Positions 5,166 to 63,193 of a stretch of 64,000 nucleotides of DNA are shown piece by piece (the first letter of the stretch is position 1; each line of letters starts with the position of its first letter). The notes below the pieces were generated by a model. It saw nothing but the letters and a program-made list of their open reading frames with translations, was not told the DNA's origin and did no database searches. The stretch is from Deltaproteobacteria bacterium (GTDB lineage: Bacteria; Desulfobacterota; Desulfomonilia; UBA1062), in the NCBI GenBank assembly GCA_018436855.1, contig JAHDKO010000016.1, forward strand, positions 7,286 to 71,285, in the 5' to 3' direction. Made by a program: the position numbers and the translations under genes.

Positions 5166-7532
5166 TTACGCAGCCTTCAGCTCATAGAGAACAAACTGTT
5201 TTTTTCCCGGAACCTCGATCAGTCGGATTGGCTTTCCATTAAGCTCCCCATGTTTCTTGTCGTATGACCCCACCTTTTTCTTGCGATAGTAGATATCACC
5301 CTTAAAAAAGATGAACTCATGCTTTCCGTCAACATGGGCAACTCCGATAAACTCGCCACCAATGGTTCTCTGGGCATATACCATTCCTCTGACTACTTGC
5401 TGATATTGAACAGAAGCGGTATGATCGCCTTTTGTATAGGTGGTGGTTACTGTTTCAGTGGTTTCGGGATCATTAAGGTATGAGTCAGATTCAACTTCCT
5501 GCTTCTTATATCTGTTCCATACCTCCTGCAAAGAGGATTTGTTCTCATGCCGGTTACCCAACAATTCCCTGGCAAGAGCAAAGAGCATGCTGCTTTCGCT
5601 GTTTGCTATTGCCGCCAGTCCCTTATCGCTCAGATCGCCTTCAACAGCCATGGCCGTTTCGAGCTTGCTTGCAATGAGCGTAAGAGCCTTTTCCTGCACG
5701 GTTTCAGCGTATGACAGGTAATAAACTCTCACATCTTTATTCTGGCCTATTCTCCAGCTACGCCGGGATGTTTGACGCAGAGTATAGATGGAATACCCTG
5801 TCTGGAAAAACAAGATTGTGGGGAATTCGTAAAGATCGAGTCCTGTCTGAACCAAACGGGGATTTGTAATAAGCCCGTCATACTCACCAGTTGCGATCTT
5901 TTCTTTAACCCACGCTTCACGTTTTTCCGTGCTCACCGTGTTTGATCTGAGAACGAGTAACCTGATACCTTCTCTTTCGAATTTTTCCACGATTTCAGGT
6001 ATCAGATCCCTTGTACCTGTATGCTCCAAACACACCAGACATTTCCGGCCTTCAGCCAATTCCTGTTTTGCCAGCTCAATGATCTTTTCCTCTTTGGGCA
6101 AAACATCGATGTCTAATGCAGGAGCCTCGGCAATAACCTCATTCACACCATTGTCGTTCATGAGAGTGATCAACTCAGGTTTTCGGCATCCGTCAGGATA
6201 AGCCAGAAGGGAATTGATCATTTTGCCCAAAAGCCGCTTATCACCACGAGCCAAGGCTTCTTTAACCGCATTTGTCAGGGTTTCCTCGAAATCTTTGTAC
6301 TCAATCTTCTGGATCTCATCCATCGACACCGGAACGATAATTTCATCATAAGGTGGCAATGATTTTGAAACATCAGAAAGTCGTACAAACACACTGTTTT
6401 CGAGAAGCATGTCAGTTAATATCAGTGGGCTTATTCCGGGTTTCTCTCTGGAGCTTACCAGCTTCCGGTTTGTCCCACCAATACTTGCGACATTGTGTTT
6501 CCCGTCCTCGACATAAACATGTTCAAGAATTCCATACAGCTTTGCGAACTGCATGGTCTTCCCGTACTTCAAACCCTTGGCATTCATCTTTTGCGGATTG
6601 AGTCTCCACATGATGTAGTACAGGTTTGTGCTGTACCCTCCGAGCAAAGTACCGGTTAATGCAAGTGTACGTTTGCACGAAGAAGCAAGATCAGCGAAAG
6701 CCTGACCCTGGCCTGTACCGCCGCCTTTCAACTCATGAACTTCATCAGCCAGAAACAGATCAAACGCGCCTTTCAGATATCGTTTGATATATTCAGCTTT
6801 TGCGTAACGCCTGAATCGACCTCCAGGCTGATACAATGGCTCACCACACAGTACAGTGGTTCCGTCATCGTTGGTCCGAATTTCATTGATGCATTTTGTC
6901 TTTTTGTTCTTTCGAACACTCTCGATTAAATCAGGATCAATCTCTCTGCCACACCGAGGGCAATATCCGTTATGAGCAATATGTTTTTGCTCATAGAGAG
7001 CCTTGCTTTTACCCTGGCACGATATTACACCCTCGATCTGGTAATGCAGCTTTGCCCTCTCTTTCCCGATAACCCACACTTCCATGTTCTTGGGTTTGGT
7101 GCGGTTTTTTCGGAGATTTACAAGCTCTGCCATAGATTTTCCGTTAAGATTGATAACAGTGCATCCAGGTATGGTTTCCTCTGCTTCCCTGATCCATTTC
7201 TGAACCAGATGACCAGGACACATAACCAGGACGCGCTTGGCATCGAGCAAGTAGGCTACTGCTAAAGCCATGATAGTTTTGCCGGTTCCCATCTCGCCAC
7301 AAAGGGTTTCCCCTCTTGCAACCTGAAAACCTTTTGTCACAGCTAAAACGGCATCCTCCTGGGCGGGAAAGAGCTTGCGCTTGAGATTATCCAACCGACT
7401 AGCCCTTTTAATATCCAAAACATCTCGGTTCTTAGGATCGTACAAGGGCTTCAACTCACTCTTGACACGATCTTTTAATTCTTCCGAGAACTCGGATAGA
7501 AAATCCTTTAATGAAATAGTATCCGTTGACAT
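5166..7532 (-). CDS. SNF2-family helicase (DEAH-box) with zinc ribbon
   Basis: Walker A GEMGTGKT, DEAH box LFLADEVHELKG, CPRCG zinc ribbon and a C-terminal helicase domain. Start at ATG 7532 preceded by GGAGG. Confidence 0.8.
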   Translation of the reverse strand: MSTDTISLKDFLSEFSEELKDRVKSELKPLYDPKNRDVLDIKRASRLDNLKRKLFPAQEDAVLAVTKGFQVARGETLCGEMGTGKTIMALAVAYLLDAKRVLVMCPGHLVQKWIREAEETIPGCTVINLNGKSMAELVNLRKNRTKPKNMEVWVIGKERAKLHYQIEGVISCQGKSKALYEQKHIAHNGYCPRCGREIDPDLIESVRKNKKTKCINEIRTNDDGTTVLCGEPLYQPGGRFRRYAKAEYIKRYLKGAFDLFLADEVHELKGGGTGQGQAFADLASSCKRTLALTGTLLGGYSTNLYYIMWRLNPQKMNAKGLKYGKTMQFAKLYGILEHVYVEDGKHNVASIGGTNRKLVSSREKPGISPLILTDMLLENSVFVRLSDVSKSLPPYDEIIVPVSMDEIQKIEYKDFEETLTNAVKEALARGDKRLLGKMINSLLAYPDGCRKPELITLMNDNGVNEVIAEAPALDIDVLPKEEKIIELAKQELAEGRKCLVCLEHTGTRDLIPEIVEKFEREGIRLLVLRSNTVSTEKREAWVKEKIATGEYDGLITNPRLVQTGLDLYEFPTILFFQTGYSIYTLRQTSRRSWRIGQNKDVRVYYLSYAETVQEKALTLIASKLETAMAVEGDLSDKGLAAIANSESSMLFALARELLGNRHENKSSLQEVWNRYKKQEVESDSYLNDPETTETVTTTYTKGDHTASVQYQQVVRGMVYAQRTIGGEFIGVAHVDGKHEFIFFKGDIYYRKKKVGSYDKKHGELNGKPIRLIEVPGKKQFVLYELKAA

Positions 7533-7671
7533 GTTTCCTCCGAAGTTTGCCCACAAGACAACTATCCCCGCAGGGAAAAAGTTGTTCCCTGTAGGAATAA
7601 TGTTTGTTTGGAATAATTGAAAGGGAGTGTGCTACGAACTACATATTATGAAGAGTTGCCTTTTTATGACT

Positions 7672-8229
7672 TTATTTCCATAACTCTTCCTGAACGATCT
7701 GTGTAAGAATAAAGCCTTCCAACTGCGCTTCGTCAGGTGTTTGCATTACACAACCCTTCACGCCTTCGCCCAGGCCGATGCAACGAACCGTTTCTCCTTT
7801 TTCGGCCCATAGCCATCTGAAGATCATTTCTGACCATTCCTGTTTGAGTGGGGTGGATACGGTGGCATCCAGCCATTTATGAAACTGATCGAGAATATTT
7901 TCATCGGATGTACCGTACAAGATCCGGGATTCATTCGATTCCCCGAATAAATCCTTATTATACAAAATCCGGTGAAGTCCGTTCTCGATTCTCTTGCTGA
8001 TTACCCGGTAATTGCCGTAACTTGTTCTTGTCATAAAACAGGATGCTTCCTCGTGTTCCAGATCGATTTCCTGGTTCTGAAGAAACATTGCCGTCAAAGC
8101 AAGAACATCGCCCTCTCTACCGAATACGGACAGGAAATAGCACTCTGGCCTATATCCATGTTTTGATAGGATAACTTTATCGCAATAGCAGCGAATTCCA
8201 TTACCCATCACTGATATAACTCCATACAT
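7672..8229 (-). CDS. hypothetical protein (185 aa)
   Basis: ORF between the methyltransferase and the helicase. No recognisable motif. Confidence 0.4.
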   Translation of the reverse strand: MYGVISVMGNGIRCYCDKVILSKHGYRPECYFLSVFGREGDVLALTAMFLQNQEIDLEHEEASCFMTRTSYGNYRVISKRIENGLHRILYNKDLFGESNESRILYGTSDENILDQFHKWLDATVSTPLKQEWSEMIFRWLWAEKGETVRCIGLGEGVKGCVMQTPDEAQLEGFILTQIVQEELWK

Positions 8230-8239
8230 GGTAATTCTC

Positions 8240-9313
8240 CTATTTTATATCGATGAAGCTCTGGGTTTGGTAATCCAAAGCCCGGACAATGATTTCGAAC
8301 CGTTCAATGACGGTGATTTTTGTTTTTTCGTCACCATCATCAGCTTCGGTATCCTCATACCCGGTTTCTTCCTGGTATTTTCTGACCGATCCTTTGATGA
8401 GAAATTTTCGATCACCCTTACCGACCATTCCATTCATCATGCCGCTTGCCATCAACATAGCCATGTGACCGTTTCGCAAAGGGGTAAGCGGCTGAAGTGA
8501 TGACATGGTTTGAATCTTGGTTTCCAGTAGGAATGAGTCCGTAAGCCCATCATTCTGAACCTGAACATAAGCCTTATCAGGATCAAAACGGGTGCTTCTG
8601 AACATGAAAGTTTTCTCGTTTCGGTCGATTACCGGCACCGGGTATGAACAGCGATAAAACTCTTCGCTATTCACTTGTGGAATATGAACCTGAACGTCTT
8701 CCACAGGAACCGATGTTACAGCGTCCCAGAAATCTTTGTTGCTTTTGTAAACCTTTTCCGGGAACGGCCCAGTTGGCCTTTGTCCCATGATCACTACCTG
8801 TTTGAACCGATCAAATTCTTCACCAGGAAAGGCGAAGATTGCAGGGTTTTCCAGGCGCATGATCAGGAACTTTTTCACCTTTTTCACTGTGCTCCAGGGA
8901 ATGATATAGATGAGAACTCCTTTTGGCGCGAGGTACGTGAAATGTTGGTGTAAAAAACGGGCTTCTACTCGGATTTTGTTATCATCAACATCTCCTGTCT
9001 CATCGTCATAGGGAGGGTTCAGAAGCAGGGCTCCGAAAGCTGCACGAGAAATGTGTGTTTCGAAAATACTATCGCATTTCAGTACAGCATCGAGCCTCCC
9101 ATCTGCTACATCAGCCCGATTCTCATCAAGCTCAATCCCGTATGTGGAACACTCTTCGTAACCATCTGCGAGAAGGGACAATGGTTCACCATCCCCGCAG
9201 CATGTATCAAGATATCTGGTTTTCCCCTGAATCACTAGAATCTTCCTGAGTGCTTCAATCACGCACAAAGGAGTAGGGTAAAACCCCATTTTTGCTTGTC
9301 CTGCCAATCTCAT
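8240..9313 (-). CDS. N6-adenine (or N4-cytosine) DNA methyltransferase, orphan
   Basis: Motif I LDTCCGDGEPL and motif IV LLNPPYD. FYPTP near the N-terminus. Start ATG 9313 preceded by AAGGAG. No adjacent restriction endonuclease. Confidence 0.75.
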   Translation of the reverse strand: MRLAGQAKMGFYPTPLCVIEALRKILVIQGKTRYLDTCCGDGEPLSLLADGYEECSTYGIELDENRADVADGRLDAVLKCDSIFETHISRAAFGALLLNPPYDDETGDVDDNKIRVEARFLHQHFTYLAPKGVLIYIIPWSTVKKVKKFLIMRLENPAIFAFPGEEFDRFKQVVIMGQRPTGPFPEKVYKSNKDFWDAVTSVPVEDVQVHIPQVNSEEFYRCSYPVPVIDRNEKTFMFRSTRFDPDKAYVQVQNDGLTDSFLLETKIQTMSSLQPLTPLRNGHMAMLMASGMMNGMVGKGDRKFLIKGSVRKYQEETGYEDTEADDGDEKTKITVIERFEIIVRALDYQTQSFIDIK

Positions 9314-9356
9314 GTCAATCTCCTTTGGTTGGTTTATTTTTATCCTGGACCACGGC

Positions 9357-9674
9357 CTATGAGATCCTTTTGACAGCCGTGATATGTGAGAAGGAAATAC
9401 ATCTCGGACTTGTTGCCTCGAAACTGCCCGGTTTTTGGGTAATTTCAAAATCATCAGGCAGCAAGATATCGAGTATGATCAACTCATCTTCTTCAAGCTC
9501 ATCCAGCAACCAATTCATCAATGCGTCATGAACAGCTTCGGGAGAAGTGAACAGGTAAATTGCATCCTGTATTTCACCCGCTGCTCTACTCCGCTTTCCT
9601 TTTTGGGGAATAAGTCCTTGGTGCCGGATATTCTTGAGATATTTATCTGTGGTCACATGATAATATGTCTTCAT
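9357..9674 (-). CDS. hypothetical protein (105 aa)
   Basis: Start MKTYYHVTTDKYLKNIRHQGLIP preceded by GAGGAA RBS. Faint resemblance to ART-like or DarT-like N-termini, not confirmed. Confidence 0.35.
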   Translation of the reverse strand: MKTYYHVTTDKYLKNIRHQGLIPQKGKRSRAAGEIQDAIYLFTSPEAVHDALMNWLLDELEEDELIILDILLPDDFEITQKPGSFEATSPRCISFSHITAVKRIS

Positions 9675-10711: not shown

Positions 10712-10960
10712 TCAGTAATCCACATGGAACAAAGTTCCGTCTGTTGCTTTGATGATATAATCATCAGCCACGTTCTTTATGCCGAGTTTGAATACCTGAG
10801 AAATCATACTCCTATGAAAATACGCAGTAATTTTTCTCGGTACTCTTTGCATGGGATTTGATCCGCAATCCGAAGGATCATACGAAGTTTTTGAAACACC
10901 AACAGGCATGTAACCGACATGTTTACCAGACTCTCTCCTTAAAATTTCCCTGATAGTCAT
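10712..10960 (-). CDS. hypothetical protein (82 aa)
   Basis: ORF. No recognisable motif. Confidence 0.35.
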   Translation of the reverse strand: MTIREILRRESGKHVGYMPVGVSKTSYDPSDCGSNPMQRVPRKITAYFHRSMISQVFKLGIKNVADDYIIKATDGTLFHVDY

Positions 10961-11064
10961 AAACTACCTCCTAATTAGTTGTTTTTATTATTTGTTGACC
11001 AAAAAAAGGACGCAAAAAGGGGAATATAACCCACATGTTATGCGCTTCTGGAGTGGTCGAAATT

Positions 11065-11176
11065 AATCTTTGATTGAATGTTTGTAGGAATTGCTTGAAC
11101 TACTTTTACCGTTCATCGACGGCTCAATGATCAAATAAATTGATCAAGGATATGTTATGAGTGAAGTATAAGCATA
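11065..11176. repeat. Left copy of ~110-bp imperfect inverted repeat (partner at 18925..19040)
   Basis: The core ggctcaatgatcaaataaattgatcaaggatatgttatgagtgaagtataagcata matches the reverse complement of 18925-18980 at 54/56 bp. Similarity extends about 55 bp further through ttgaatgtttg...gcttgaactacttttacc. It contains the palindrome TGATCAAataaaTTGATCA. Confidence 0.6.
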
Positions 11177-11208
11177 TTCAACACAAAAAGTCAAGCATAA
11201 AATGCTTA

Positions 11209-11243
11209 TTTTCCTTGACAAATTATTCCATCTATGTTATTTA
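11209..11243 (+). promoter_or_regulatory. Sigma70-type promoter (family B) for the nuclease gene: TTGACA-N17-TGtTATTTA
   Basis: ttattttccTTGACAaattattccatctatgtTATTTA with an extended -10 TGn. Shares the AATAATAC/ATTATTTT upstream box with the other family-B copies. Confidence 0.45.
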
Positions 11244-11295
11244 GATAACAAAATAGATCAGGAGGCACTTTCAAATAGCACATGGGGGGTGGGAA

Positions 11296-12063
11296 GTGAA
11301 TGTTAAGAGGGTAATATTTAGTGTTTGCTTGTTTCTGGCGTTTGGTTTTTCGGGCGTACATGCCGGTAATCCCGGCTTGCCGGTCTATGAGGATGTTCTA
11401 TTCAACAAGTTGGATCAGATCGTTCATCATACGGCCTACTCGCTTCAATACAAGGAAGACTGTGAACAAGCTGCCTGGGTTGCGTACAAGATCGAGTATG
11501 ATAAGCTGATTCATTCGATCAAACGCTCAGATAATTTTCGGGTAGACCCCAAGGTAATAACGAAGTCTGCCACACTAGCAGATTATCGGGGTTCCGGGTA
11601 TGATCGAGGTCATCTTGCCCCGGCTGCATCCATGAAATACTCGAAAATCACCATGAGCGAGTCGTTCTATATGTCGAACATGAGCCCACAGCATCCAGGC
11701 TTAAACCGGGGTATCTGGAAAAAACTTGAGGATAAGGTAAGGCGATGGTCAAACAAACATGGTGATCTGTATGTTGTGAGCGGTCCCGTATTAAGGGGCC
11801 AGCCGAACAAGGATACCAAGTTCATTGGACCGAACAATGTTTGTGTGCCGGAATACTATTACAAAGTGATCCTGGATTATAATGAACCCGAGATAAAGGC
11901 CATCGGCTTTTTCTTTCCCAATGTTCCCTGTGTTGACGATCTTGAACAATTCGCCCTATCTGTTGCTAGTATTGAGGTCATAACCGGCATTGATTTTTTC
12001 TCCGGGCTCCCGGATCATATCGAGGATGTAATTGAGAACGAGTGCAACTATCATGCTTGGTGA
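11296..12063 (+). CDS. Secreted DNA/RNA non-specific endonuclease (His-Me finger, NUC1/EndoG-like)
   Basis: N-terminal signal peptide and the SGYDRGHLAPAASM active-site motif (DRGH). GTG start after GGGTGGGAAG. Confidence 0.8.
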   Translation: MNVKRVIFSVCLFLAFGFSGVHAGNPGLPVYEDVLFNKLDQIVHHTAYSLQYKEDCEQAAWVAYKIEYDKLIHSIKRSDNFRVDPKVITKSATLADYRGSGYDRGHLAPAASMKYSKITMSESFYMSNMSPQHPGLNRGIWKKLEDKVRRWSNKHGDLYVVSGPVLRGQPNKDTKFIGPNNVCVPEYYYKVILDYNEPEIKAIGFFFPNVPCVDDLEQFALSVASIEVITGIDFFSGLPDHIEDVIENECNYHAW

Positions 12064-12075
12064 AAGGGTTAAACC

Positions 12076-12300
12076 ATGACGAACTTTTTGCTCAAAGACG
12101 TAGACGATTCCTTTTGGACCACGGTTAAGAAGAAGACGCAGCAAGAGGATATCCATTTGAAGCACTTGATCCTTGAGCTTCTTCGCCTTTGGCTCAAGGG
12201 GGATATCCGGGTTGACACAAAGAAGCTCAGGAAGATCCACGAAGAGGTTAAATCGAAGGGGTATGCACAGAGAACCAGAAGGGGGCAAGACGAACCTTGA
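12076..12300 (+). CDS. small protein, possible ribbon-helix-helix
   Basis: 74 aa with an N-terminal beta-strand-like segment followed by helices. Sits between the nuclease and VRR-NUC genes. Confidence 0.35.
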   Translation: MTNFLLKDVDDSFWTTVKKKTQQEDIHLKHLILELLRLWLKGDIRVDTKKLRKIHEEVKSKGYAQRTRRGQDEP

Positions 12301-12659
12301 TTATTCCCGAGGCAGATGTTCAAAAACAAATACTTGATTATCTTGCATGGAGACATGTCTTTGTTTGGCGGCAAAATTCCGGTGCTGTCGTATACGAGGA
12401 CGAAAACAGGAATAAGCGGTTCGTCCGGTTCGCTTCCGTCAACGGGATCTCCGACATTCTGGGAATACTGCCCGATGGAAGACTGCTGGCTATCGAGGTT
12501 AAAAAAAAAGGCAAAAAACCATCCGATGATCAAGAGAAATTTTTGGCTGCAATTAAAAGAAACAATGGTGTAGCAATTCTGGCATACTCGCTTGATGATG
12601 TAATCAAAGAACTAGACTGTGTTTCTTTTTCCCAAAAACATATTGCACGACCTTCTTGA
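12297..12659 (+). CDS. VRR-NUC domain protein (PD-(D/E)xK nuclease)
   Basis: QKQILDYL...RQNSG...GISDILGILPDGRLLAIEVKKKGKKPSDDQEKFLAAIKRNNGVAIL matches the VRR-NUC signature (D..E.K and Q..F). Confidence 0.75.
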   Translation: MIIPEADVQKQILDYLAWRHVFVWRQNSGAVVYEDENRNKRFVRFASVNGISDILGILPDGRLLAIEVKKKGKKPSDDQEKFLAAIKRNNGVAILAYSLDDVIKELDCVSFSQKHIARPS

Positions 12660-47442: not shown

Positions 47443-47670
47443 ATGGGGTATAGCAGCAGATACGGTTGGGTTCGAATCGGCGTGTATATTTGGCCCTTTG
47501 CGGAATACCGGCAGATCACGAAGGGTCGCTACAAGGGCCTTTACGAGATACTTGTAAACAACAACAAGTACATTGTCACTGCTGACCGGATCAAGTCGTT
47601 CCCTTCTTTTGCGAAAATTGATCTCTCGGGAAATAATCATGTCTCAAGAGATTGCCACCATGATGCATAA
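47443..47670 (+). CDS. small protein, paralog A of a duplicated pair
   Basis: FAEYRQITKGRYKGLYEILVNNNKYIVTADRIKSFP is similar to FVEYREITKGRQKGYYEITALGRKYIVHPKHIVRFP in 48127..48363. Confidence 0.45.
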   Translation: MGYSSRYGWVRIGVYIWPFAEYRQITKGRYKGLYEILVNNNKYIVTADRIKSFPSFAKIDLSGNNHVSRDCHHDA

Positions 47671-48130
47671 CAAGGGGGTATGTATGAACGTCCGCATGAA
47701 CACATTGAGAAATTTTCGGGCGCACACTGTTCAGATCGCAAATATGTTTTGGCTTGCGGCGATAGATCCCGAGAACCCGCCACAGTCGTTCGTTGATTTT
47801 TTTGAAGGTCAGTCAACGGCTGATATGCAGCTCATTTTCGAGGATCTTGAATTACCGGACCTCGATAATTACGAGGATGATGAGTTTGCGCGAGTAGTGC
47901 TTGAGCACCTTGACCTTGCTGAGAAGAATGGCTTTATCGCTGTTCTCAATATCCCGTTAAAGACAGGCTTCACCGAACACGGATGCATGGCCCATCGGGC
48001 AATCACTCATTGCCCCATAATCTATGCGGACACCCTGGATGATCTCATGATCAAGGCTGTTGAGTTGGCCGAAAAGCTGAAAGAGTCAGATCGCCAGGAA
48101 TATGAAGCCGCGATGAGGGATCAGCTATGA
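47639..48130 (+). CDS. acidic hypothetical protein (start uncertain: 47639 or 47660)
   Basis: Asp/Glu-rich (FEDLELPDLDNYEDDEF). Could be a DNA-mimic-like protein, unconfirmed. Confidence 0.4.
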   Translation: MSQEIATMMHNKGVCMNVRMNTLRNFRAHTVQIANMFWLAAIDPENPPQSFVDFFEGQSTADMQLIFEDLELPDLDNYEDDEFARVVLEHLDLAEKNGFIAVLNIPLKTGFTEHGCMAHRAITHCPIIYADTLDDLMIKAVELAEKLKESDRQEYEAAMRDQL

Positions 48131-48363
48131 GTAGTGCGCCTGCCACGTTTGAATACGGTTTAGCTCATGTTCAGAGAGGCTTCCGTACTCAAGTTAAGCC
48201 ATTTGTCGAGTACCGCGAGATCACGAAAGGTCGGCAAAAAGGCTACTACGAGATTACAGCCCTGGGCCGGAAATACATTGTTCATCCAAAGCACATAGTC
48301 AGGTTTCCCGGTGAACTGGATAAACAAGTTAAAAAGAAAGTCAAAAAGGAGTGTTTGTCATGA
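48127..48363 (+). CDS. small protein, paralog B of a duplicated pair
   Basis: See 47443..47670. Confidence 0.45.
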   Translation: MSSAPATFEYGLAHVQRGFRTQVKPFVEYREITKGRQKGYYEITALGRKYIVHPKHIVRFPGELDKQVKKKVKKECLS

Positions 48364-48746: not shown

Positions 48747-49572
48747 TATAATTAAATATTGCAAACCCCTGTCTGATTTTCGTAAAAAGACGGGCTACGG
48801 TACTTTTCCTGATCCGGGATTCTTTGAAAAAAGTGATTCCCCGGCGAACCAATTATTCCGGTTTTGCATGTACCTTGAACTGGTTATGTACGAAGTGGAA
48901 GACGGTGTTATCACTCTTGATACCGCTCGTAAAAAGCTAGATGCAATCAACAACATACTGCGATTTTCAGCTCAGTCTCAATTTTTGATTGATCCTATTG
49001 CTTACTGCTTATCAGACACTAAATGCGATCAGAGCAACACCGCTGCAGCTTCCGAAGCGTTTGCAGAATGGCTCATAGAATCGGATCTTCCCGATTATGA
49101 ATGCGCCAATATGGGTAAACTTCTTTATTTACAAACTTGTTATGGCTTGCGGACGATAGATTGCTGCTCAATGGAATTTTCGGAAGACGATCTGGAAGCT
49201 GACACCCTTTCTCTTGTTAATCGTAAAATTTTGCCGCGAAAGCAAATACTGGCAAACCTGAACGCGATGTATGCAATATTATTCACGTTTATTCTCGATG
49301 AAGAGTTGCCATTTGTTTTTCACGGTGAGCGTCATTTTTACGCGCACAATCTGTATTACGAAATGTGGCGCAAGGAGTCGGGTGTTGGCCTTGATTGTCC
49401 TGTTGTTCTCGATCTCACTCCGAAAGATTGGCTGTCATACGCGAGTGAAACTGCTGTCATGGAGACAGACGAAGTGCTCAAGATAGATAAAAGAATACGC
49501 CACGACCTTCAGCTCTCTCTTCACATAAAGAATGCCTCGTGCGTTGCAAATTATCTTGGAAATTCGGCATAA
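48700..49572 (+). CDS. hypothetical protein (290 aa)
   Basis: ATG 48700 preceded by GAAGGAGG. Confidence 0.45.
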   Translation: MATLSTPSPENTKLSDIIKYCKPLSDFRKKTGYGTFPDPGFFEKSDSPANQLFRFCMYLELVMYEVEDGVITLDTARKKLDAINNILRFSAQSQFLIDPIAYCLSDTKCDQSNTAAASEAFAEWLIESDLPDYECANMGKLLYLQTCYGLRTIDCCSMEFSEDDLEADTLSLVNRKILPRKQILANLNAMYAILFTFILDEELPFVFHGERHFYAHNLYYEMWRKESGVGLDCPVVLDLTPKDWLSYASETAVMETDEVLKIDKRIRHDLQLSLHIKNASCVANYLGNSA

Positions 49573-49758
49573 ACAGATGATATTTATGGTGTTTTACTTA
49601 ACAAATCCATCCATCTATGATATAGTGATAACATAGATAGGGAGTTGATCGTGATAACTTTAGAAGAGGCGATTTTACTTGCTCTCAAGGCGCATGATGG
49701 GCAGATCGACGAAGCGAGAAATCTCTTTGTGAAAATCTATCAAGTCCTGTTGGATACA

Positions 49759-50130
49759 TCACACAACCCCTTCCATCTCTTCGGCGGCAATCCATTTCCC
49801 GTTCTCGTCCCGCACCTCGACCTTGATATTTTCGGGATTCATGCTCTCATCCACGAGCTGTTGAATACTCTTTCCCTTTCGCAACTCGTGGACTTTACGA
49901 GCATGCCAAACCTTGAACTTGGCCGACTGAACCAGCCGCTGCAGGGCGAGTTTCCTGTTCGCATGTTGACTCCGTTCCGACCGGGATTCTCCCACGGCCC
50001 CGGATTCCCGATGCACGATCCTCACCCCGGACTCGGTTTTGTTCTGATGTTGACCGCCAGGACCACCAGATCGAAACACCTGGATATCGAGATCCTTCCT
50101 GGTAATACTGAATAAAAACTCCTTACCCAT
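49759..50130 (-). CDS. GGQ-motif peptidyl-tRNA hydrolase / release-factor (RF-1) domain protein (ArfB or RF-H-like)
   Basis: [66 protein letters not shown] is the class-I RF catalytic domain with the universal GGQ. The antisense ORF 49645..50115 was rejected. Confidence 0.65.
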
Positions 50131-50191
50131 AATAGTCACCCTTCTTGAAAAACTTATCAGAATTAAGACCACATTCCATGAGAGTATCGTG

Positions 50192-50650
50192 TCAACACTC
50201 AGTCTTTCCGTAATATTTTTCATATTTATTATGTAATTCAACATCAAGTTTTTTATTTTGCACTGTTTCAGCCTTGTTGTACAACATATTGATTGCTCGT
50301 TTATAAGAATATTCATCACCCCATGATTTTATCAGTTTATCATGAGATCTCAGCACCATAATTTTAAGAAATGCACTATTCGAATAATGATCCCGGACAA
50401 ACTCTCCGAAATTTGCGAGATACCGAGTTTTCTCTAGTCTGTTTATCTTTACTTTCCGGGTCAGCGAAATCATTAAACAGACTCCAGCCATGATTACTGC
50501 CGCTACAATAGCGTATCCTGAAAATTCTAATATACACACAAATAAGGCAATAAAAACACAGATCAAACTTAAAAAAAATAACGAATCCAACATCTCGAAA
50601 AAATCCCGTGTTTTTTTCAATTCTATCATCTGATCATTACTTAGTTTCAT
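50192..50650 (-). CDS. membrane protein, hypothetical
   Basis: 152 aa with two TM helices near the N-terminus. Confidence 0.45.
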
Positions 50651-50688
50651 TATTATTACCTCCTGATAAATTTTGAGAAAACCATAGA

Positions 50689-50955
50689 TTATACCCTGTA
50701 TGTTTTCTGAGCCATTTTTCCCTCATCCAGTTCTTTGCATATCTCTCTTGCTTTTGCGAAAACATCCTCTGGCTTATTTGTGTATCCCTTTATTCGGCAC
50801 TTGACTTCGGATTTCCTGATTCCCTGTCCATTTAGTTTTGGAAGCCATTGAAACACCCCGACTGAGAACGTGGCACTTCTGAGTGAGTGAGGATTCCCAG
50901 GAGCCCATTCGCCGTAAAAATCGTGTTTCCATACTACTTTGTTTTCTAACATCAT
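50689..50955 (-). CDS. hypothetical protein (~88 aa)
   Basis: Start MMLENK. The long ORF would overlap the upstream gene end. Confidence 0.35.
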   Translation of the reverse strand: MMLENKVVWKHDFYGEWAPGNPHSLRSATFSVGVFQWLPKLNGQGIRKSEVKCRIKGYTNKPEDVFAKAREICKELDEGKMAQKTYRV

Positions 50956-50966
50956 AAACCCCCTTA

Positions 50967-51899
50967 TCACTTCCCGATCAACAAAGTTCCCAGAAAAGCC
51001 AGCCATCCAAGAACAGTAATCCAGATCAGTTTCCAGGATGTCTTCGTGATCCTCACGATCTCGACGTTACCCGTGTCCAGGTCCTCGACCTTCTGAGCGA
51101 GAAAATGCCCCAAAGCCGTTGGAGTAGTAAAACTCTTGTCGGACAACATCTGCGCCAGGGTTACATCGCTGGCATGTCCGAGAGCAGTTATTACCGGAGT
51201 TTTCATCGCCAACATCTGACGGGCAATTGCCGGATCATCGAATACTTCCAGATTGCTTCCCCCTCCCCTGACCAGGGCAATCAGATCGCATTTGCCGTCA
51301 GCCCGTGAGAGTACAGACACCACAGCGCGAGGATCAGAGAAATCCGTCCTGGTTTCCGTAATCGCGTATCGCTCAACAGCGTTACCAAGTGCGCTCATTA
51401 CGTCCTTATCCACGATCCCGCTTTTTCCGTAGATCATGTTGATCCTGGGCTTTTTCCCTTCTGCGATCATACCGATCAATACACCGCCAGCGTCCTTTTT
51501 CCCGATCCTGACTTTTCGCTCCAAAAGCTCGGCCCTCTCGATGATCCGAGTATCCACCTGACTGCCAGCGGCATCAACCTGGGTAGGAACGAAACTCACC
51601 TGAATGCCGGCAGCTCCCGAAGCCCTCACCATCTCCAGAACTCCCCGAAAGCTGTATGCATATCCCGGCTGCAGTTTCACCCGAATCAGTGCAGGCATCT
51701 TGAGCTTGAGCATTTCCCTGGTTTCCTGATCTACAAGTGAATCATAAAAGAAACCTCGGTAGGATTTGCCGTTACCGTGCTCGTACACTCCCCGAACGAA
51801 CCAGACAGTACCCGTGACAACCCTGGTTGCTTCACTCAGGATTATACGGCTCAATTCTCCCGGCGTGATGATCTTCGGTTCGTTCTTTTTCGCAGCCAT
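50967..51899 (-). CDS. Exonuclease VII large subunit (XseA)-like protein, truncated, with C-terminal TM anchor
   Basis: N-terminal OB-fold region (ITPGELSRIILSEATRVVTGTVWFVRGVYEHGNGKSYRGFFYDSLVDQE) and a core IALVRGGGSNLEVFDDPAIARQMLAMKTPVITALGHASDVTLAQ that matches the XseA RGGGS...GHExD region. C-terminal WKLIWITVLGWLAFLGTLLIG is hydrophobic. Confidence 0.6.
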   Translation of the reverse strand: MAAKKNEPKIITPGELSRIILSEATRVVTGTVWFVRGVYEHGNGKSYRGFFYDSLVDQETREMLKLKMPALIRVKLQPGYAYSFRGVLEMVRASGAAGIQVSFVPTQVDAAGSQVDTRIIERAELLERKVRIGKKDAGGVLIGMIAEGKKPRINMIYGKSGIVDKDVMSALGNAVERYAITETRTDFSDPRAVVSVLSRADGKCDLIALVRGGGSNLEVFDDPAIARQMLAMKTPVITALGHASDVTLAQMLSDKSFTTPTALGHFLAQKVEDLDTGNVEIVRITKTSWKLIWITVLGWLAFLGTLLIGK

Positions 51900-51925
51900 G
51901 CGCCCTCCTTTTTTTTCAACTCGCG

Positions 51926-52261
51926 TTATTCGATAACCACGAGTGCTCCCTGCTCTTCCAGCTTTTTCTTGGCGAGAAAAGCATTCTCGGAATCGACCAA
52001 TTCCAGAATCTTTGACGGTGTATTTTCGGAAAGATCCTTTGCCTCCTTGAGCCCGAGATTCGTTACCTCGCGAATCATCTTGATAACACAGATCTTAGCC
52101 TTTCCGGCATCCATCAACACAACATTCACCAGTTTTTTCCCGAACAGACGCACGATGACTCCAGGCTTTTCCGCTGCCAGCTTGTAAAACATTTCCTTGA
52201 ATTCCCCATCCTTAATGTTGCCCAGAATCTCGATTGCCTCTGCGTAATAGTTTCTGCCCAT
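51926..52261 (-). CDS. Ribosomal protein bL12 (L7/L12)-like protein
   Basis: C-terminal [59 protein letters not shown] matches the L7/L12 CTD ([27 protein letters not shown]...AEALKKALEEAGAEVEVK). AAGGAG RBS. Confidence 0.7.
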   Translation of the reverse strand: [111 protein letters not shown]

Positions 52262-52279
52262 GATTTCAATCTCCTTTCT

Positions 52280-52525
52280 TTAGCCTATCCAAATTCCGCG
52301 TTTTCTTGCGAAATCGTACAACTCATCGATAAAAGAGTTTGTAACGGCAACAGGATCACAGTCTCTATTTGCCATGATCTTGTATTTTCGAGTGTTAAAG
52401 TCCAGAAAATGAACATTAGCATCGAGTATGTCGGCAATTTGATGCATAAGTGATTGAATATTATTCAAATTCTCCTGTTTGGTCAGTAAATGATACACCT
52501 TAACTCTATGTTTCCAGCTCTTCAT
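52280..52525 (-). CDS. hypothetical protein (81 aa), first gene of the operon
   Basis: AGGAG RBS. Preceded by a family-B promoter. Confidence 0.4.
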   Translation of the reverse strand: MKSWKHRVKVYHLLTKQENLNNIQSLMHQIADILDANVHFLDFNTRKYKIMANRDCDPVAVTNSFIDELYDFARKRGIWIG

Positions 52526-52539
52526 TGTTTAACTCCTTC

Positions 52540-52580
52540 TATCTCTATAACATACATTAAGTATAATGTCAAGCATAAAT
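52540..52580 (-). promoter_or_regulatory. Sigma70-type promoter (family B): TTGACA-N17-TATAGA
   Basis: Minus strand tattatttatgcTTGACAttatacttaatgtatgtTATAGA. Confidence 0.45.
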
Positions 52581-52677
52581 AATACTATTTGTGATATTTT
52601 ATAATATCAAACTGGTTTGTTATTGTATTAGTAAAATTATAATTGACTTTTTTTATTTATTGTGATATGAGTCGCCC

Positions 52678-53694
52678 ATGATGATAAAAATGGCAAATGT
52701 CAACGACCTGATATTCGACCCCAATACGTACCTGAAAAAATATAACCAAACCGTGTTGGACAAGGCCATGTCATGCATCAGCTCGGGTATCCCCTGCCCT
52801 CCTGTTGATATAGATGCAAATATGCGTATCATAGGCGGTCACAAACAGTGGATTGCGTCAGTAAGAGCCCGGAAGAAAACTGTTCCGGTGCGTGTGCATA
52901 ATCTTATCAGGTCCGACACAGACGCACTCATGTTTGCCTGTAAGCAGTTATCGGACACGCTTACTAGCGACGAGCGCAATACTGCAATCGCGCTTACGCT
53001 CAATTCAATCGATGATCCGGCTCAACAGCCGATCATAAAAAACACCTTATCTGAAATCCTTAGAGTGTCGCTGCTCGATATAAACAAGGCAAAAATTGAA
53101 TACAACATGGACAGCAATGAAAATGAGAATTCCGCTATCGTGTCTCTGTACTTGAACAGTCACACAGTAGCTCAGATATCACGAAAGCTGTCTATATCCA
53201 AATACTTCGTTATCAAAACATTGACCGAAGAAGGGTTATATACATCTCAATACAAAATGCCCGATCTTGAACAGGCCGATATTGACGATTTCATAGGCAA
53301 CTCCCTTGATGATGCCATTTCCCGCAAAGACGATGAAATGGACATGCTGCTCGAAATGATGGAGGGAACCTGCGCGTCTTTGACGGAAGAGTTTAATCGT
53401 TACGGTATGACTCTCGACAATTTTAAGGAAAACGTCCGATCAACACGATCCCAGGCTGACAAGGCAACAAATTCGCTCGTTACGCTGCTTGAACGTTTGC
53501 GCTCAACGATCCCTGTCCTGAAAGATCCCAAAATGATAGATGAGTTACTGCTGGAGCTTCAGCCCCTTGTTGCTGTTTCCAAGGAATTTATCAAAATTGT
53601 AGAACAATACAAGGGAGATTTCGGCCAGCCTGATACACCGCTGTCCTTGATGAAGAAACATTACCTGAAGCTGATCGAGGCTGCAGAAAACTAA
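52678..53694 (+). CDS. ParB/Srx-fold N-terminal domain protein
   Basis: VNDLIFDPN...PPVDID...RIIGGHKQWIASVRARKKTVPVRV resembles the ParB N-terminal nuclease-like domain (GERRWRAA box). Confidence 0.5.
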   Translation: MMIKMANVNDLIFDPNTYLKKYNQTVLDKAMSCISSGIPCPPVDIDANMRIIGGHKQWIASVRARKKTVPVRVHNLIRSDTDALMFACKQLSDTLTSDERNTAIALTLNSIDDPAQQPIIKNTLSEILRVSLLDINKAKIEYNMDSNENENSAIVSLYLNSHTVAQISRKLSISKYFVIKTLTEEGLYTSQYKMPDLEQADIDDFIGNSLDDAISRKDDEMDMLLEMMEGTCASLTEEFNRYGMTLDNFKENVRSTRSQADKATNSLVTLLERLRSTIPVLKDPKMIDELLLELQPLVAVSKEFIKIVEQYKGDFGQPDTPLSLMKKHYLKLIEAAEN

Positions 53695-54950
53695 GCATCG
53701 ATGGGTCTGATCACTCCCCCGAACCCCTGGTAATCCCCTCCCCTTATATTCAGGGCAATCCCTATGTTCACATCGATCAGCTTTTCGTCCCAGGTTTTTA
53801 ATTTTCCTGTTATTTCCTCAGTCCACATTTTCTGGGGATTTTCCCGGTACGACAAGGCCCCGCGAACTAATGCATCCGCAAATAATTCCAGAGTATAAAT
53901 GTCAAACATTGATACACGGGCATCGTGAATTAATTGCTCGACACTCCATCCTAATAATTTTGTTGCATATGAAGAGATGTAAGTGAATTCCAGCTTGTCG
54001 TTCACCATCCACACAATACCCTCGATCTGTTCCGTAAAATACTCAATGAATTTAGGATTATAAAGAATACTATTCCCTATGACGGACTTCTCGGCATCAT
54101 TCCAGATCGGTGGATCAATTTTTAAAATTACGTTCCCGCTGCCATCGGAGATAACTCGTGTAGAACACATGCACACCCCTTTTGTCCGGGTAACGTACCG
54201 AATATTTTCAGTGATGATTTTCATCCCCCCGCTGCTTTTGCCGCTCATGTGTTTTTTCAAAAAAGCCACATCATCGGGATGCACGAATTTGGCTATATTA
54301 CGCGCCAACATTTCCCCGTATGCTCGGTAGCCAAAAATATCCTCGATACTGTAGGGCGCATAAAGAATAGTTCCATTCCCGTCAGTGAAGATGTTGTATG
54401 ACGATGTTTGGGTTATGGTTGCCGGGATGGAATTGATTTCCTCATCATGAATGATTTTTAAAAGATCATTGCATATGATTCCAAGCGATATTTTTTCACT
54501 GACCTTAATAATTTCAATTAAATCATTCTGTTTCCACCTTAAATCTTCATCCGACTCAACAACCAGGACACCCAAAAAATCATCAGACCCCAGGTGCGCC
54601 CGTGTGATGAAAACCGATTTGACAAGCAACGAGCGTATTTCCTGATCCACAAGTTTATCCTGATCACCGGAAGAGAACATGTCCAGTGTTCCGGGGAGTA
54701 GTATATCCATCTTGATTGCGCCAATAAATGTTTCCGGGTATTTCGCCGTCCAATCGAATTGAGCATTATCATTATTATCGTACCATATCTCCCCGGATTG
54801 TTTATCCGAATGCATCTGCACAATCGGCCTCATGGTCATTTTATTCAGATCAACAATCTCATAAAAGATCAGCCGCTTCCCAGGAGAATACTTGGACAGA
54901 GCTGTAACGAGAATTAGCCGCGAAACATCTGTAATACTCGACATTTGCAC
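53691..54950 (-). CDS. PAS/GAF-domain sensor protein without recognisable output domain
   Basis: Two PAS-like segments (NIFTDGNGTILYAPYSIEDIFGYRAYGEMLARNIAKFVHPDD and EGIVWMVNDKLEFTYISSYATKLLGWSVEQL). Confidence 0.55.
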   Translation of the reverse strand: MQMSSITDVSRLILVTALSKYSPGKRLIFYEIVDLNKMTMRPIVQMHSDKQSGEIWYDNNDNAQFDWTAKYPETFIGAIKMDILLPGTLDMFSSGDQDKLVDQEIRSLLVKSVFITRAHLGSDDFLGVLVVESDEDLRWKQNDLIEIIKVSEKISLGIICNDLLKIIHDEEINSIPATITQTSSYNIFTDGNGTILYAPYSIEDIFGYRAYGEMLARNIAKFVHPDDVAFLKKHMSGKSSGGMKIITENIRYVTRTKGVCMCSTRVISDGSGNVILKIDPPIWNDAEKSVIGNSILYNPKFIEYFTEQIEGIVWMVNDKLEFTYISSYATKLLGWSVEQLIHDARVSMFDIYTLELFADALVRGALSYRENPQKMWTEEITGKLKTWDEKLIDVNIGIALNIRGGDYQGFGGVIRPIDA

Positions 54951-61746: not shown

Positions 61747-62244
61747 ATGGCAGAATACATTCAGTTGGTAGGGGTTCCAAAAAGCATTCCCAATGAGGTG
61801 GTGATTCCCATCCCGTCGAATGTCCCCCCTATTGTGCGGCGTATCGTTTACGGCAAATTGCAGTCGGCACTCAAGCGAAACACCAGGGTTGTGTATCAGG
61901 ACATGAACGAAACCAAGATCGCCCTGGACCTTGCCATTCAGATGGAGAAGGCTACTTCGCTGCTTTTGGGCCGTGTCGGCATGAACCCGGAGGCTGTGGT
62001 CCCATTCATTCGCCAGTATTTCACAACGCTCGAAAGCATGGGCGAAATGACCAAAGCCGCATGCAAAAAGGCTGGCATTGATTACAAGGAGCCCAAGGGC
62101 CTTGCAATTGCCAGAAAAATAAATACCGAGGGGCAGGCTCCCGCAGATGATACGGAATCTGTCGAGACAGAATCTGCCGAGAAATCTCAGCCTGCCGAAA
62201 CGGAGTCCAAAGTTAAGGAGAAGCAGACAAAGGCAGCGGGGTAG
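61747..62244 (+). CDS. hypothetical protein (165 aa), acidic C-terminus
   Basis: GGAAGGAG RBS and ATG 61747. Confidence 0.45.
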   Translation: MAEYIQLVGVPKSIPNEVVIPIPSNVPPIVRRIVYGKLQSALKRNTRVVYQDMNETKIALDLAIQMEKATSLLLGRVGMNPEAVVPFIRQYFTTLESMGEMTKAACKKAGIDYKEPKGLAIARKINTEGQAPADDTESVETESAEKSQPAETESKVKEKQTKAAG

Positions 62245-62248
62245 TACC

Positions 62249-63193
62249 ATGAGCCGTATCCTGCAACCAAGATCAAAACGCATGCGGCTCCATGTGAGTT
62301 TTGATAATGTGTGGGCCGCATGCCTTATTTTGACTCCCTTTATTGGCTTGATATTGTCCGTAGGTGCTTTTGCATCCCAGATGATTACAGATCAGCCTTG
62401 TCCTGCGGAAGGATGCAAGGTGGTCGGCTCGTTCGCAACCTATGGTGAGATCCCTATTCTCCTGGCAGGGATTGTCCTGTTCGCCCTGCTCGTTGTGAAC
62501 GGGATCTGGTGTTGTTTTCATGGCGAACGGATCGACCGTATAAACAAGTTTTTGAGTTGCTTCGACATCACTCCGCACCGGGTTGTTATTATCCTTCTCG
62601 CGTCATCGTTCGCGCTTGAGGGATATTTAGTTGCTGTTCAATACTTTGCAGCTCGTGCGTTTTGTCCTTTCTGCATGTCCGTGTTTGCCGTAATTGTTCT
62701 GACGGCAATATTCTACGAATTTTATACCCGGTCCATGGTCATTCCTCTTGTATCGGCAGTATTTATAGCAACTTTTTTAGGGAGTGTTTTTGTATCACCA
62801 ACAAGATCAGACATAATTTCTCTGCCTGATCTTGTTGAATCGCAGATTCGCAAAGGTTCTCCTTCGGGAACATTCTATCTCATTTATGGACAGGACTGTT
62901 CTCATTGCGAAGATATTATTGGTTACTGTAAAGAATTCAATGGAGACATTGATGTACGCTTATGCCCTGTTGAAAAATCAAAACCGCTGCTTGACGCTCT
63001 TGATATAGACAGTGTTCCGACAATGGTTATCAATACTCCTGATCATGTGGAGATAATTGTTGGAAGTAGCAAGATTATGGAGCGCATCAATTCATCGATA
63101 AATCGGTCTGTGTTGGATTACACACTTCATAATCAATCATTTCTTACGGAAGGTGACGGCATATGCAGCAAGACTTCTCCATGCATAAATTAG
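62249..63193 (+). CDS. VKOR (vitamin K epoxide reductase)-like membrane domain fused to a thioredoxin-like domain
   Basis: TM-embedded CPFC and a C-terminal CSHC motif in a Trx-like region. About five TM helices. Confidence 0.6.
   Translation: MSRILQPRSKRMRLHVSFDNVWAACLILTPFIGLILSVGAFASQMITDQPCPAEGCKVVGSFATYGEIPILLAGIVLFALLVVNGIWCCFHGERIDRINKFLSCFDITPHRVVIILLASSFALEGYLVAVQYFAARAFCPFCMSVFAVIVLTAIFYEFYTRSMVIPLVSAVFIATFLGSVFVSPTRSDIISLPDLVESQIRKGSPSGTFYLIYGQDCSHCEDIIGYCKEFNGDIDVRLCPVEKSKPLLDALDIDSVPTMVINTPDHVEIIVGSSKIMERINSSINRSVLDYTLHNQSFLTEGDGICSKTSPCIN

Follow-up and report, generated by a model that had tools for sequence, protein, structure and literature searches.

To our knowledge, all known GGQ domains work in the ribosomal peptidyl-transferase centre, and some of the proteins that carry one, such as ArfB (YaeJ)/ICT1 and C12orf65 (mtRF-R), have it as a stand-alone domain without codon-recognition domains. 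For the PrfH-RtcB module, a logic has been proposed in which translation is rescued under RNA-targeting attack (PMC6514570). Capture of domains of the ribosomal protein bL12 is documented for phages, where contexts are varied and acquisitions independent (Mizuno et al. 2019, PMC6375957). Here we describe a string of six genes in a 64,000-nt stretch of conjugative-element DNA from a Deltaproteobacteria bacterium (contig JAHDKO010000016.1; hereafter the window, with positions counted from its first letter) that encodes, among others, a minimal GGQ protein, a bL12-like protein and a relative of XseA, the large subunit of exonuclease VII (ExoVII). A first-pass annotation of this DNA had presented the genes as one system of translation-factor look-alikes. 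We favour a different reading, to which we assign a probability of roughly 60%, namely that these are accessory genes which were acquired independently of one another and stand as a mosaic in the conjugative element's variable region, flanked by the regulator/ParB-like genes on one side and a series of orphan genes on the other.

The six open reading frames (ORFs) lie at 49759-52525 on the minus strand, all co-directional and separated by gaps of 14-61 nt. The gene string stands as first annotated, since an independent gene caller gives the same six ORFs on a metagenome contig of identical DNA (6.5 kb). Strong Shine-Dalgarno sequences precede at least the first three in the order listed below. 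The features needed for the comparison are as follows.

52280..52525, minus strand: gene for an 81-aa basic protein (p81), an ORF with a strong Shine-Dalgarno sequence (AAGGAG); part of an insertion unique to the window element.
51926..52261, minus strand: gene for a 111-aa fusion protein with a bL12 C-terminal domain (CTD), by Pfam Ribosomal_L12.
50967..51899, minus strand: gene for a tail-anchored ExoVII large-subunit-like (XseA-like) protein of 310 aa, by Pfam Exonuc_VII_L and the fold predicted by AlphaFold2 (AF2).
50689..50952, minus strand: gene for an 87-aa basic protein, an ORF of which the first 31 codons only are common to relatives.
50192..50650, minus strand: gene for a predicted two-transmembrane (two-TM) protein of 152 aa, by hydrophobicity; lineage-specific.
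49759..50130, minus strand: gene for a minimal GGQ (RF-1 domain) protein of 123 aa, by Pfam RF-1 and phrog_3122.
50158..50846, no strand: AT-rich segment of 689 bp (35% GC), delimited by blastn breakpoints; absent from the related elements L006 and L007.
52678..53694, plus strand: divergent gene for a 338-aa protein with a weak ParB-like signal (phrog_620, E 0.0029); context, outside the cluster.

Comparison with related elements shows which of these genes belong together. Four relatives (L002, L006, L007 and L008, all of the MOBH type with an F-type type IV secretion system) make up, with the window, the five elements of this kind that were available. The four have in common a backbone order of relaxase-like gene, type IV coupling protein, SLT, helix-turn-helix and PAS proteins and ParB-like gene, and in all of them an XseA-like gene comes directly after the ParB-like gene, and an RF-1-like gene after that. 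Their XseA-like proteins are 77-88% identical to that of the window, and the ParB-like 338-aa protein is syntenic in L002, L006 and L007 at 43-47% identity. The 81-aa, L12-like and 152-aa (two-TM) genes are absent from all four relatives. Indeed, in DNA alignments homology with the relatives begins at the start codon of the XseA-like gene, and a clean 689-bp indel (50158-50846) sets the window apart from L006 and L007, and the homologous stretches on its two sides are separated by 3 bp; in the extra segment lie the entire 152-aa gene and, of the 87-aa gene, the distal two-thirds. Composition varies along the string as well, from 52% and 53% GC in the XseA-like and RF-1-like genes through 46% in the L12-like gene to 37% in p81, 33% in the two-TM gene and 35% in the 689-bp insert. 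On the basis of the clean indel and these GC differences we regard the cluster as mosaic: by gene structure, synteny and indels it is a conserved pair, XseA-like and RF-1-like, with two lineage-specific additions. The inherited core would thus be two co-directional genes, for a tail-anchored, XseB-independent ExoVII-like nuclease and a minimal GGQ protein, to which the window element would have added a first insert with the 81-aa gene and the gene for an orphan N-terminus fused to a bL12 CTD, and a second, the 689-bp AT-rich piece with the two-TM protein gene. No meaningful repeats were found bordering the inserts, and no near-identical DNA was found for the 3.2-kb region in collections of plasmid, phage and E. 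coli genomes.

Conservation of the neighbourhood in related elements was also the check suggested for the one-system idea, and only the XseA-like and RF-1-like genes travel together, in close relatives only. Outside this element family the two families showed no co-occurrence within 8-10 kb in the loci examined. Several observations nevertheless weigh against full independence of the genes. The adjacency of the XseA-like and RF-1-like genes is kept across relatives that are 77-88% identical, and the small release factor (RF) family to which the latter belongs is found repeatedly among DNA-replication, recombination or helicase genes; from these two facts a functional link between the conserved genes is possible. 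At third codon positions the L12-like gene has a G+C content of 0.58, close to the 0.59-0.62 of the conserved pair, so it is not obviously a recent arrival. Co-directional genes with gaps of 14-61 nt and good Shine-Dalgarno sequences are also what one would expect of a functional operon, and the sample consists of five elements of this family only.

The L12-like protein is where our analysis departs most from the first description, in which it was a full-length L7/L12 homologue. Pfam Ribosomal_L12 (PF00542) matches residues 46-110 with 72.5 bits (cut-off 25.9; E 3.7e-20), and when hhalign compares the protein with an alignment of 18 genuine bL12 sequences, the match spans residues 42-110 (62% identity, probability 99.5%) and residues 1-41 stay outside it. 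The N-terminal dimerisation and uL10-binding domain of bL12 and its hinge (PF16320) have no match in the protein at E<0.1, and the bL12 equivalog TIGR00855 reaches 62.2 bits against a cut-off of 84.4, with only profile positions 59-124 matched. In a search of 5.8 billion clusters the sole full-length match was the protein itself; cellular bL12 covered 55-63% of the query and were up to 67% identical in the CTD. Similarly, an exhaustive phmmer search of 1.84 billion representative proteins gave 4960 matches, all to the CTD part and none to the N-terminal ~41 residues, and tblastn against PLSDB found the CTD of cellular rplL only. A divergent bL12 N-terminal domain, plausible by eye, was ruled out by the hhalign and phmmer results. 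Judged by its sequence, the protein is an orphan N-terminus of ~41 residues fused to a captured bL12 CTD, and a singleton. Because it lacks the uL10-binding domain it should, by the architecture of bL12, be unable to join the ribosomal stalk, and its incorporation into the 50S stalk is unlikely. The CTD retains the residues of the helices that bind translational GTPases (a string of 22 protein letters) and keeps every conserved surface residue; the protein may bind these GTPases, at most as a free or otherwise tethered surface. The top phmmer matches are themselves non-ribosomal proteins (P0361-P0370 and many others, 130-1056 aa) with two to seven tandem copies of the bL12 CTD, from which it appears that this domain is used far outside the ribosome. 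The closest described counterparts are the virus-encoded bL12-domain proteins, which likewise have a captured CTD in a small (~100 aa) or larger protein of a mobile element. The window protein differs from them in its location in a conjugative element and its unique N-terminus, and its CTD is closer to cellular bL12 (up to 67%) than the phage versions, for which ~30-40% is reported (PMC6375957).

These results bear on the proposal that the six genes form one dedicated system for manipulating the ribosomes of a recipient or host, with translational GTPases as the target of the L12 CTD and the release of nascent chains as the task of the GGQ protein. The apparent operon layout with its strong Shine-Dalgarno sequences is what such a system would show, and the GTPase-binding helices of the CTD are conserved and the GGQ motif intact. 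However, the L12-like protein is a singleton without a stalk-anchoring domain, the 81-aa, L12-like and two-TM genes are missing from every relative, the composition is mosaic and the genes do not co-occur elsewhere in the loci examined, and we consider a single system of this kind very improbable. A narrower form of the idea is confined to the window element, in which the L12-CTD and GGQ proteins, expressed from one promoter, would act jointly on ribosomes in a cell that the element has just entered, the free CTD capturing or redirecting translational GTPases and the GGQ protein releasing stalled peptidyl-tRNAs. We give this joint action only a small chance; if true, it would make the locus a plasmid-borne translation-takeover or rescue module.

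The XseA-like protein, which had been counted among the translation-factor look-alikes, is instead the homologue of a DNA nuclease. Pfam Exonuc_VII_L (PF02601) matches residues 192-275 with 68.2 bits (cut-off 35.9), and the AF2 model (mean pLDDT 81.8) consists of an OB fold (~32-108), an alpha/beta catalytic domain (~150-275) and a terminal helix (286-309), for which E. coli XseA (8txr, E 2.4e-15) is by far the best Foldseek match in the PDB. Its catalytic motifs are D166, R211-GGGS (211-215) and G241-H242-x-x-D245, of which D166, RGGGS 211-215 and the pair G241-H242 do not vary across alignments with genuine XseA sequences. The family assignment made at first pass, with an OB fold, an RGGGS/GHxxD core and a C-terminal TM helix, is thus confirmed, as is the lack of an XseB partner, since tblastn finds no XseB-like sequence in the window. 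E. coli XseA shares the OB fold, the catalytic domain, RGGGS, GHxxD and the upstream Asp. In contrast to it, the window protein falls below the xseA equivalog cut-off (TIGR00237, 70 bits against 180, covering positions 175-262 only) and is tail-anchored: a short linker and a TM helix stand where XseA has its long XseB-binding helical region and C-terminal domain.

This form recurs elsewhere. The window protein fits an unnamed family of short tail-anchored XseA-like proteins of plasmids and other mobile genetic elements, ~300-480 aa long with a variable coiled coil and a C-terminal hydrophobic helix. The helix is present in all of the relatives P0002-P0010 and in most of 39 metagenome loci, and the same TM tail is found in Thermus plasmid pHB5002c, where the gene adjoins ParA, and in Meiothermus pMESIL02. 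Tail-anchored forms on Thermus, Meiothermus, Prevotella and Bacteroides plasmids are annotated there as XseA; a literature search found no study of tail-anchored XseA-like proteins. The window protein is most likely a membrane-proximal nuclease for single-stranded DNA (ssDNA), and it would be anchored in the inner membrane on the cytoplasmic side and act on single-stranded DNA ends.

The neighbours of tail-anchored XseA-like genes vary, and include CHAT-TPR, NACHT, Sel1/TPR, plasmid Rep, ComM-like ATPase, large MZB-domain helicase and WYL/GIY-YIG/AAA genes; no RF-1-like or L12-like gene lies within 8 kb of the XseA-like gene in any of the 39 metagenome loci. In two unrelated metagenome contigs an XseA-like gene stands directly beside a gene for a large CHAT-domain (TPR) protein (L099, 4827-9395; L116, 7971-13233), and in a third it is near a NACHT NTPase (L097, 7887-13344). 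The CHAT/NACHT adjacency may be a conflict-system association. It raises the question of whether the string is a defence, exclusion or toxin-immunity module, in which the membrane-anchored nuclease would degrade incoming ssDNA, from a phage or from competing conjugative or transforming DNA, or would itself be a toxin, with one or more of the small proteins regulating or immunising. Besides the CHAT-TPR (L099, L116) and NACHT (L097) neighbours, such a role is suggested by relatives that adjoin a large MZB-domain helicase (L118) or, on a Prevotella plasmid, stand with WYL, GIY-YIG, AAA and methyltransferase genes, and conjugative elements frequently bear defence cargo. On the other hand, the partner genes are different in each context, in some cases the setting is just a plasmid backbone (ParA in pHB5002c, Rep in L109), and none of the six proteins matches a PADLOC model: a search of PADLOC-DB 2.0 with these and two flanking proteins gave no match at E<=0.01. 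The RF-1-like family, moreover, is mostly phage-encoded, a better fit to counter-defence. We judge a defence role of the string unlikely, and continue to favour independent accessory genes.

The second conserved gene encodes a GGQ RF-1 domain protein, as first annotated. Pfam RF-1 matches residues 7-88 with 76.9 bits (E 1.5e-21, above the curated cut-off), and phrog_3122 ("RF-1 domain peptide chain release factor") aligns residues 2-119 with profile positions 20-133 of 136 (E 3.2e-30). The AF2 model (pLDDT 85.7) has a GGQ domain followed by two helices (70-96) and a short beta-hairpin (105-115), and Foldseek matches it to domain 3 of RF1/RF2, PrfH, C12orf65 (2rsm) and mtRF-R (7a5h). The protein lacks a PCRF or codon-recognition domain (domains 1, 2 and 4) and an ArfB-type tail. 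Accordingly, the class I release factor models match the GGQ domain only, far below their cut-offs (prfB, 70 bits against 370; prfA, 60-67 against 400-423), and the ArfB model NF006718 gives 35.5 bits against 100, over residues 7-39 only. The PrfH model TIGR03072 is the best NCBIfam match, with 72 bits against 166.65 and profile positions 103-179 of 200. Taken together, the profile and structure searches show that the L12-CTD, ExoVII and RF-1 domain calls are not spurious.

Of the described systems, the nearest is the PHROG 3122 family, for example gp202 of mycobacteriophage Catera, with 42-51% identity over 93-98% of the length and the same size, GGQ core and C-terminal extension; the window gene differs from the phage members in lying in a conjugative element beside an XseA-like gene. 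ArfB/ICT1 and C12orf65 (mtRF-R) resemble it as GGQ proteins without codon-recognition domains, the fold matches being to C12orf65 and mtRF-R, but ArfB has a linker and basic tail where the window protein has two helices and a beta-hairpin with an acidic end. PrfH, which has a reduced domain 2/4 besides its GGQ domain and an rtcB gene as its neighbour, is the best NCBIfam match and a fold match, but has an N-terminal half that the window protein lacks. A characterised prfH/rtcB-type locus was considered and rejected on the TIGR03072 score and on the absence of RtcB, of which tblastn finds none in the window. With this, and with no PADLOC match, the earlier impression that the combination is not a described module holds. 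Two other members of the small RF family do lie within 1-5 kb of RtcB, one in a phage-like contig that has RlaP and bS21 too (L137, 1056-8596) and one in Mycolicibacterium palauense (L021, 9992-12218).

The small RF family is large and conserved. Its homologues, 115-130 aa long and 60-86% identical to the window protein, form more than 1000 clusters, in the family alignment (65% mean column identity) the GGxGGQ.QN...GVRI.H core is invariant and the C-terminal extension conserved, and annotated homologues occur in more than 200 mycobacteriophages. In PLSDB, tblastn with the protein matches RF1/RF2/PrfH GGQ cores only, so the family is not represented there at full length. A literature search found no experimental study of the function of the small phage RF-1 family, and the main text of the leading-region anti-defence paper mentions neither this nor the XseA-like family. 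By analogy with ArfB/ICT1/mtRF-R, the protein is most likely a codon-independent peptidyl-tRNA hydrolase that acts on stalled ribosomes. Peptide release would keep the element's translation running, for example when RNA-targeting defences or toxins of the host jam ribosomes; the intact catalytic motifs, the abundance in phages and the occasional linkage to RtcB/RlaP would fit such a role under RNA-targeting attack.

The genomic settings of the family suggest another possibility. In phage Catera the gene lies between those for a DNA polymerase and a UvsX-like recombinase, and in phage EniyanLRS it follows a tRNA array, beside DprA-like and DNA polymerase III subunit genes. In a widespread element (L132-L136, 4325-8579), whose exact protein is listed in 115 blocks of the collection, it stands between DEAD-box and RecD2-like helicase genes, and its stop overlaps the RecD2-like start. 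Further contexts are NAD-salvage genes, assorted prophage-like or chromosomal settings, and aminotransferase, NUDIX, cell-wall enzyme and dUTPase/ribonucleotide reductase genes. In L006 the RF-1-like gene is followed by an orphan N6/N4 DNA methyltransferase gene (10852-11730), and in a Saccharibacteria contig (L024) a similar methylase is encoded near the RF-1-like gene. Neither an XseA-like nor a dedicated L12-like gene was found within 10 kb at 80 genome loci of the family; one CTD-only L12 match (59% identity), ~7.5 kb off in a contig of a Planctomycetota metagenome-assembled genome (L076), is presumably cellular rplL.

Within mobile elements, the small GGQ family may be linked in function to enzymes that process DNA. 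Applied to this locus, the XseA-like and RF-1-like proteins would cooperate in such processing, for instance by freeing element DNA that is single-stranded or in replication of covalent protein adducts or ribosome/transcript complexes. Cooperation would explain why a small GGQ gene recurs among DNA-metabolism genes, as in Catera, EniyanLRS and the DEAD/RecD2-like element, and the adjacency of the pair is kept in five related elements. Yet such neighbourhoods may be early-gene or replication modules that house many unrelated genes, and the aminotransferase, NUDIX, cell-wall and dUTPase/ribonucleotide reductase contexts have no such connection; the 80 loci with their 10-kb flanks include no XseA-like gene, and the GGQ domains known so far all act in the peptidyl-transferase centre. 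We regard cooperation of this kind as improbable.

The three remaining proteins (81, 87 and 152 aa) have no Pfam, NCBIfam or PADLOC match. p81 matches phrog_6318 weakly (E 0.0035) and has no relative in viral contigs. The 152-aa protein is hydrophobic over ~16-67, consistent with two TM helices and with its original description as a membrane protein. The 87-aa ORF, which shares its first 31 codons with the relatives, is shortened to 37 aa in L006. That shortening, together with the lack of homologues for p81 and for the N-terminus of the L12-like protein, could mean that some ORFs are non-functional debris, with the 87-aa and 81-aa ORFs and possibly the L12-CTD fusion as decaying captured fragments; the remnant of a truncated HD-domain gene adjoins the cluster as well. 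But all reading frames are intact with good Shine-Dalgarno sequences, and in the L12 CTD, which is 62% identical to the consensus, no conserved surface residue has been lost. We judge decay of this sort improbable.

The HD-domain remnant (49645-49720, plus strand) is 22 codons long; L002 has an intact gene for the corresponding HD-domain protein of 164 aa (12138-12632; Pfam HD, E 8.5e-5), and the remnant is 64% identical to its N-terminus. The rest of this gene and the 123-aa gene next after it in L002 are missing from the window, which points to a deletion beside the RF-1-like gene. Two paralogous small ORFs of the window (47443-47670 and 48127-48363, both plus strand) resemble a 123-aa protein of L002 (11760-12131; tblastn E 5e-16 and 6e-8), and the three have in common the motif (E)YR(E/Q)ITKGxxKG(Y/L)YEI, which belongs to no Pfam family.

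Upstream of the cluster lies a spacer of 152 bp and 23% GC with several sigma-70-like hexamer pairs, in which the following feature was marked.

52541..52623, minus strand: AT-rich intergenic region with overlapping sigma-70-like sites; consensus matches only.

A sigma70-type promoter had been placed here at first pass. The sequence TTGACA-17-TATAGA is indeed present at 52572-52544, and two weaker sigma-70-like sites lie in 52623-52582 (TTGATA-17-TAGTAT, 52610-52582; ATAACA-16-TAAAAT, 52623-52596). However, transcription from the first site would be predicted to start inside the Shine-Dalgarno sequence, and the eight promoter-like sites of the region are no excess over shuffled sequences (7.3). 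An Rfam scan of 49000-53000 gave no match, and no tRNA or tmRNA genes were found in the window.

The surrounding element is recognisably conjugative. F-type type IV secretion genes lie at 20-39 kb (TraG, TraH, TraF, TraN, TraU, TraC and a TrbI-like gene), a coupling protein and an HD-domain relaxase-like protein are encoded at 58.8-61.6 kb, and the window also has a ParM-like gene; the nearest TraC in PLSDB is that of a Desulfosarcina plasmid, at 47% identity. A VKOR-domain protein is encoded downstream of the HD-domain relaxase-like gene (62147-63193, plus strand), and a PAS-domain protein, kept in the relatives at 52-59% identity, adjoins the ParB-like gene (53691-54950, minus strand). At 5166-9454 (minus strand) a gene for an SNF2/ResIII helicase (796 aa) lies 10 nt downstream of a 185-aa ORF (7672-8229), which stands between it and the gene for a DUF6094 methyltransferase-family protein (404 aa). 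The SNF2/ResIII and DUF6094 region could be anti-restriction or defence cargo of the element.

In summary, what the first-pass annotation observed is largely correct, and its interpretation is largely not supported. The genes most likely provide independent accessory functions, namely ribosome rescue, an ssDNA nuclease and a free GTPase-binding domain, from what would be a shared transcription unit, and they may have a part in establishment, early entry or counter-defence. New are only the gene combination and the orphan L12-CTD fusion, since public records already carry annotations for both conserved families. A six-gene "system" is probably of little import, given that its combination of genes is a one-off. 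The parts may matter more widely: the L12-CTD fusion sets a conjugative-element example beside the known capture of bL12 domains by phages, plasmids of taxa that range from Thermaceae to Bacteroidota carry the tail-anchored, XseB-less ExoVII-like nuclease, which is found beside CHAT/NACHT genes too, and the GGQ proteins of ~120 aa, a very large and well-conserved family spread over phages, prophages and conjugative elements, are good candidates for a ribosome-rescue or counter-defence factor of mobile elements.

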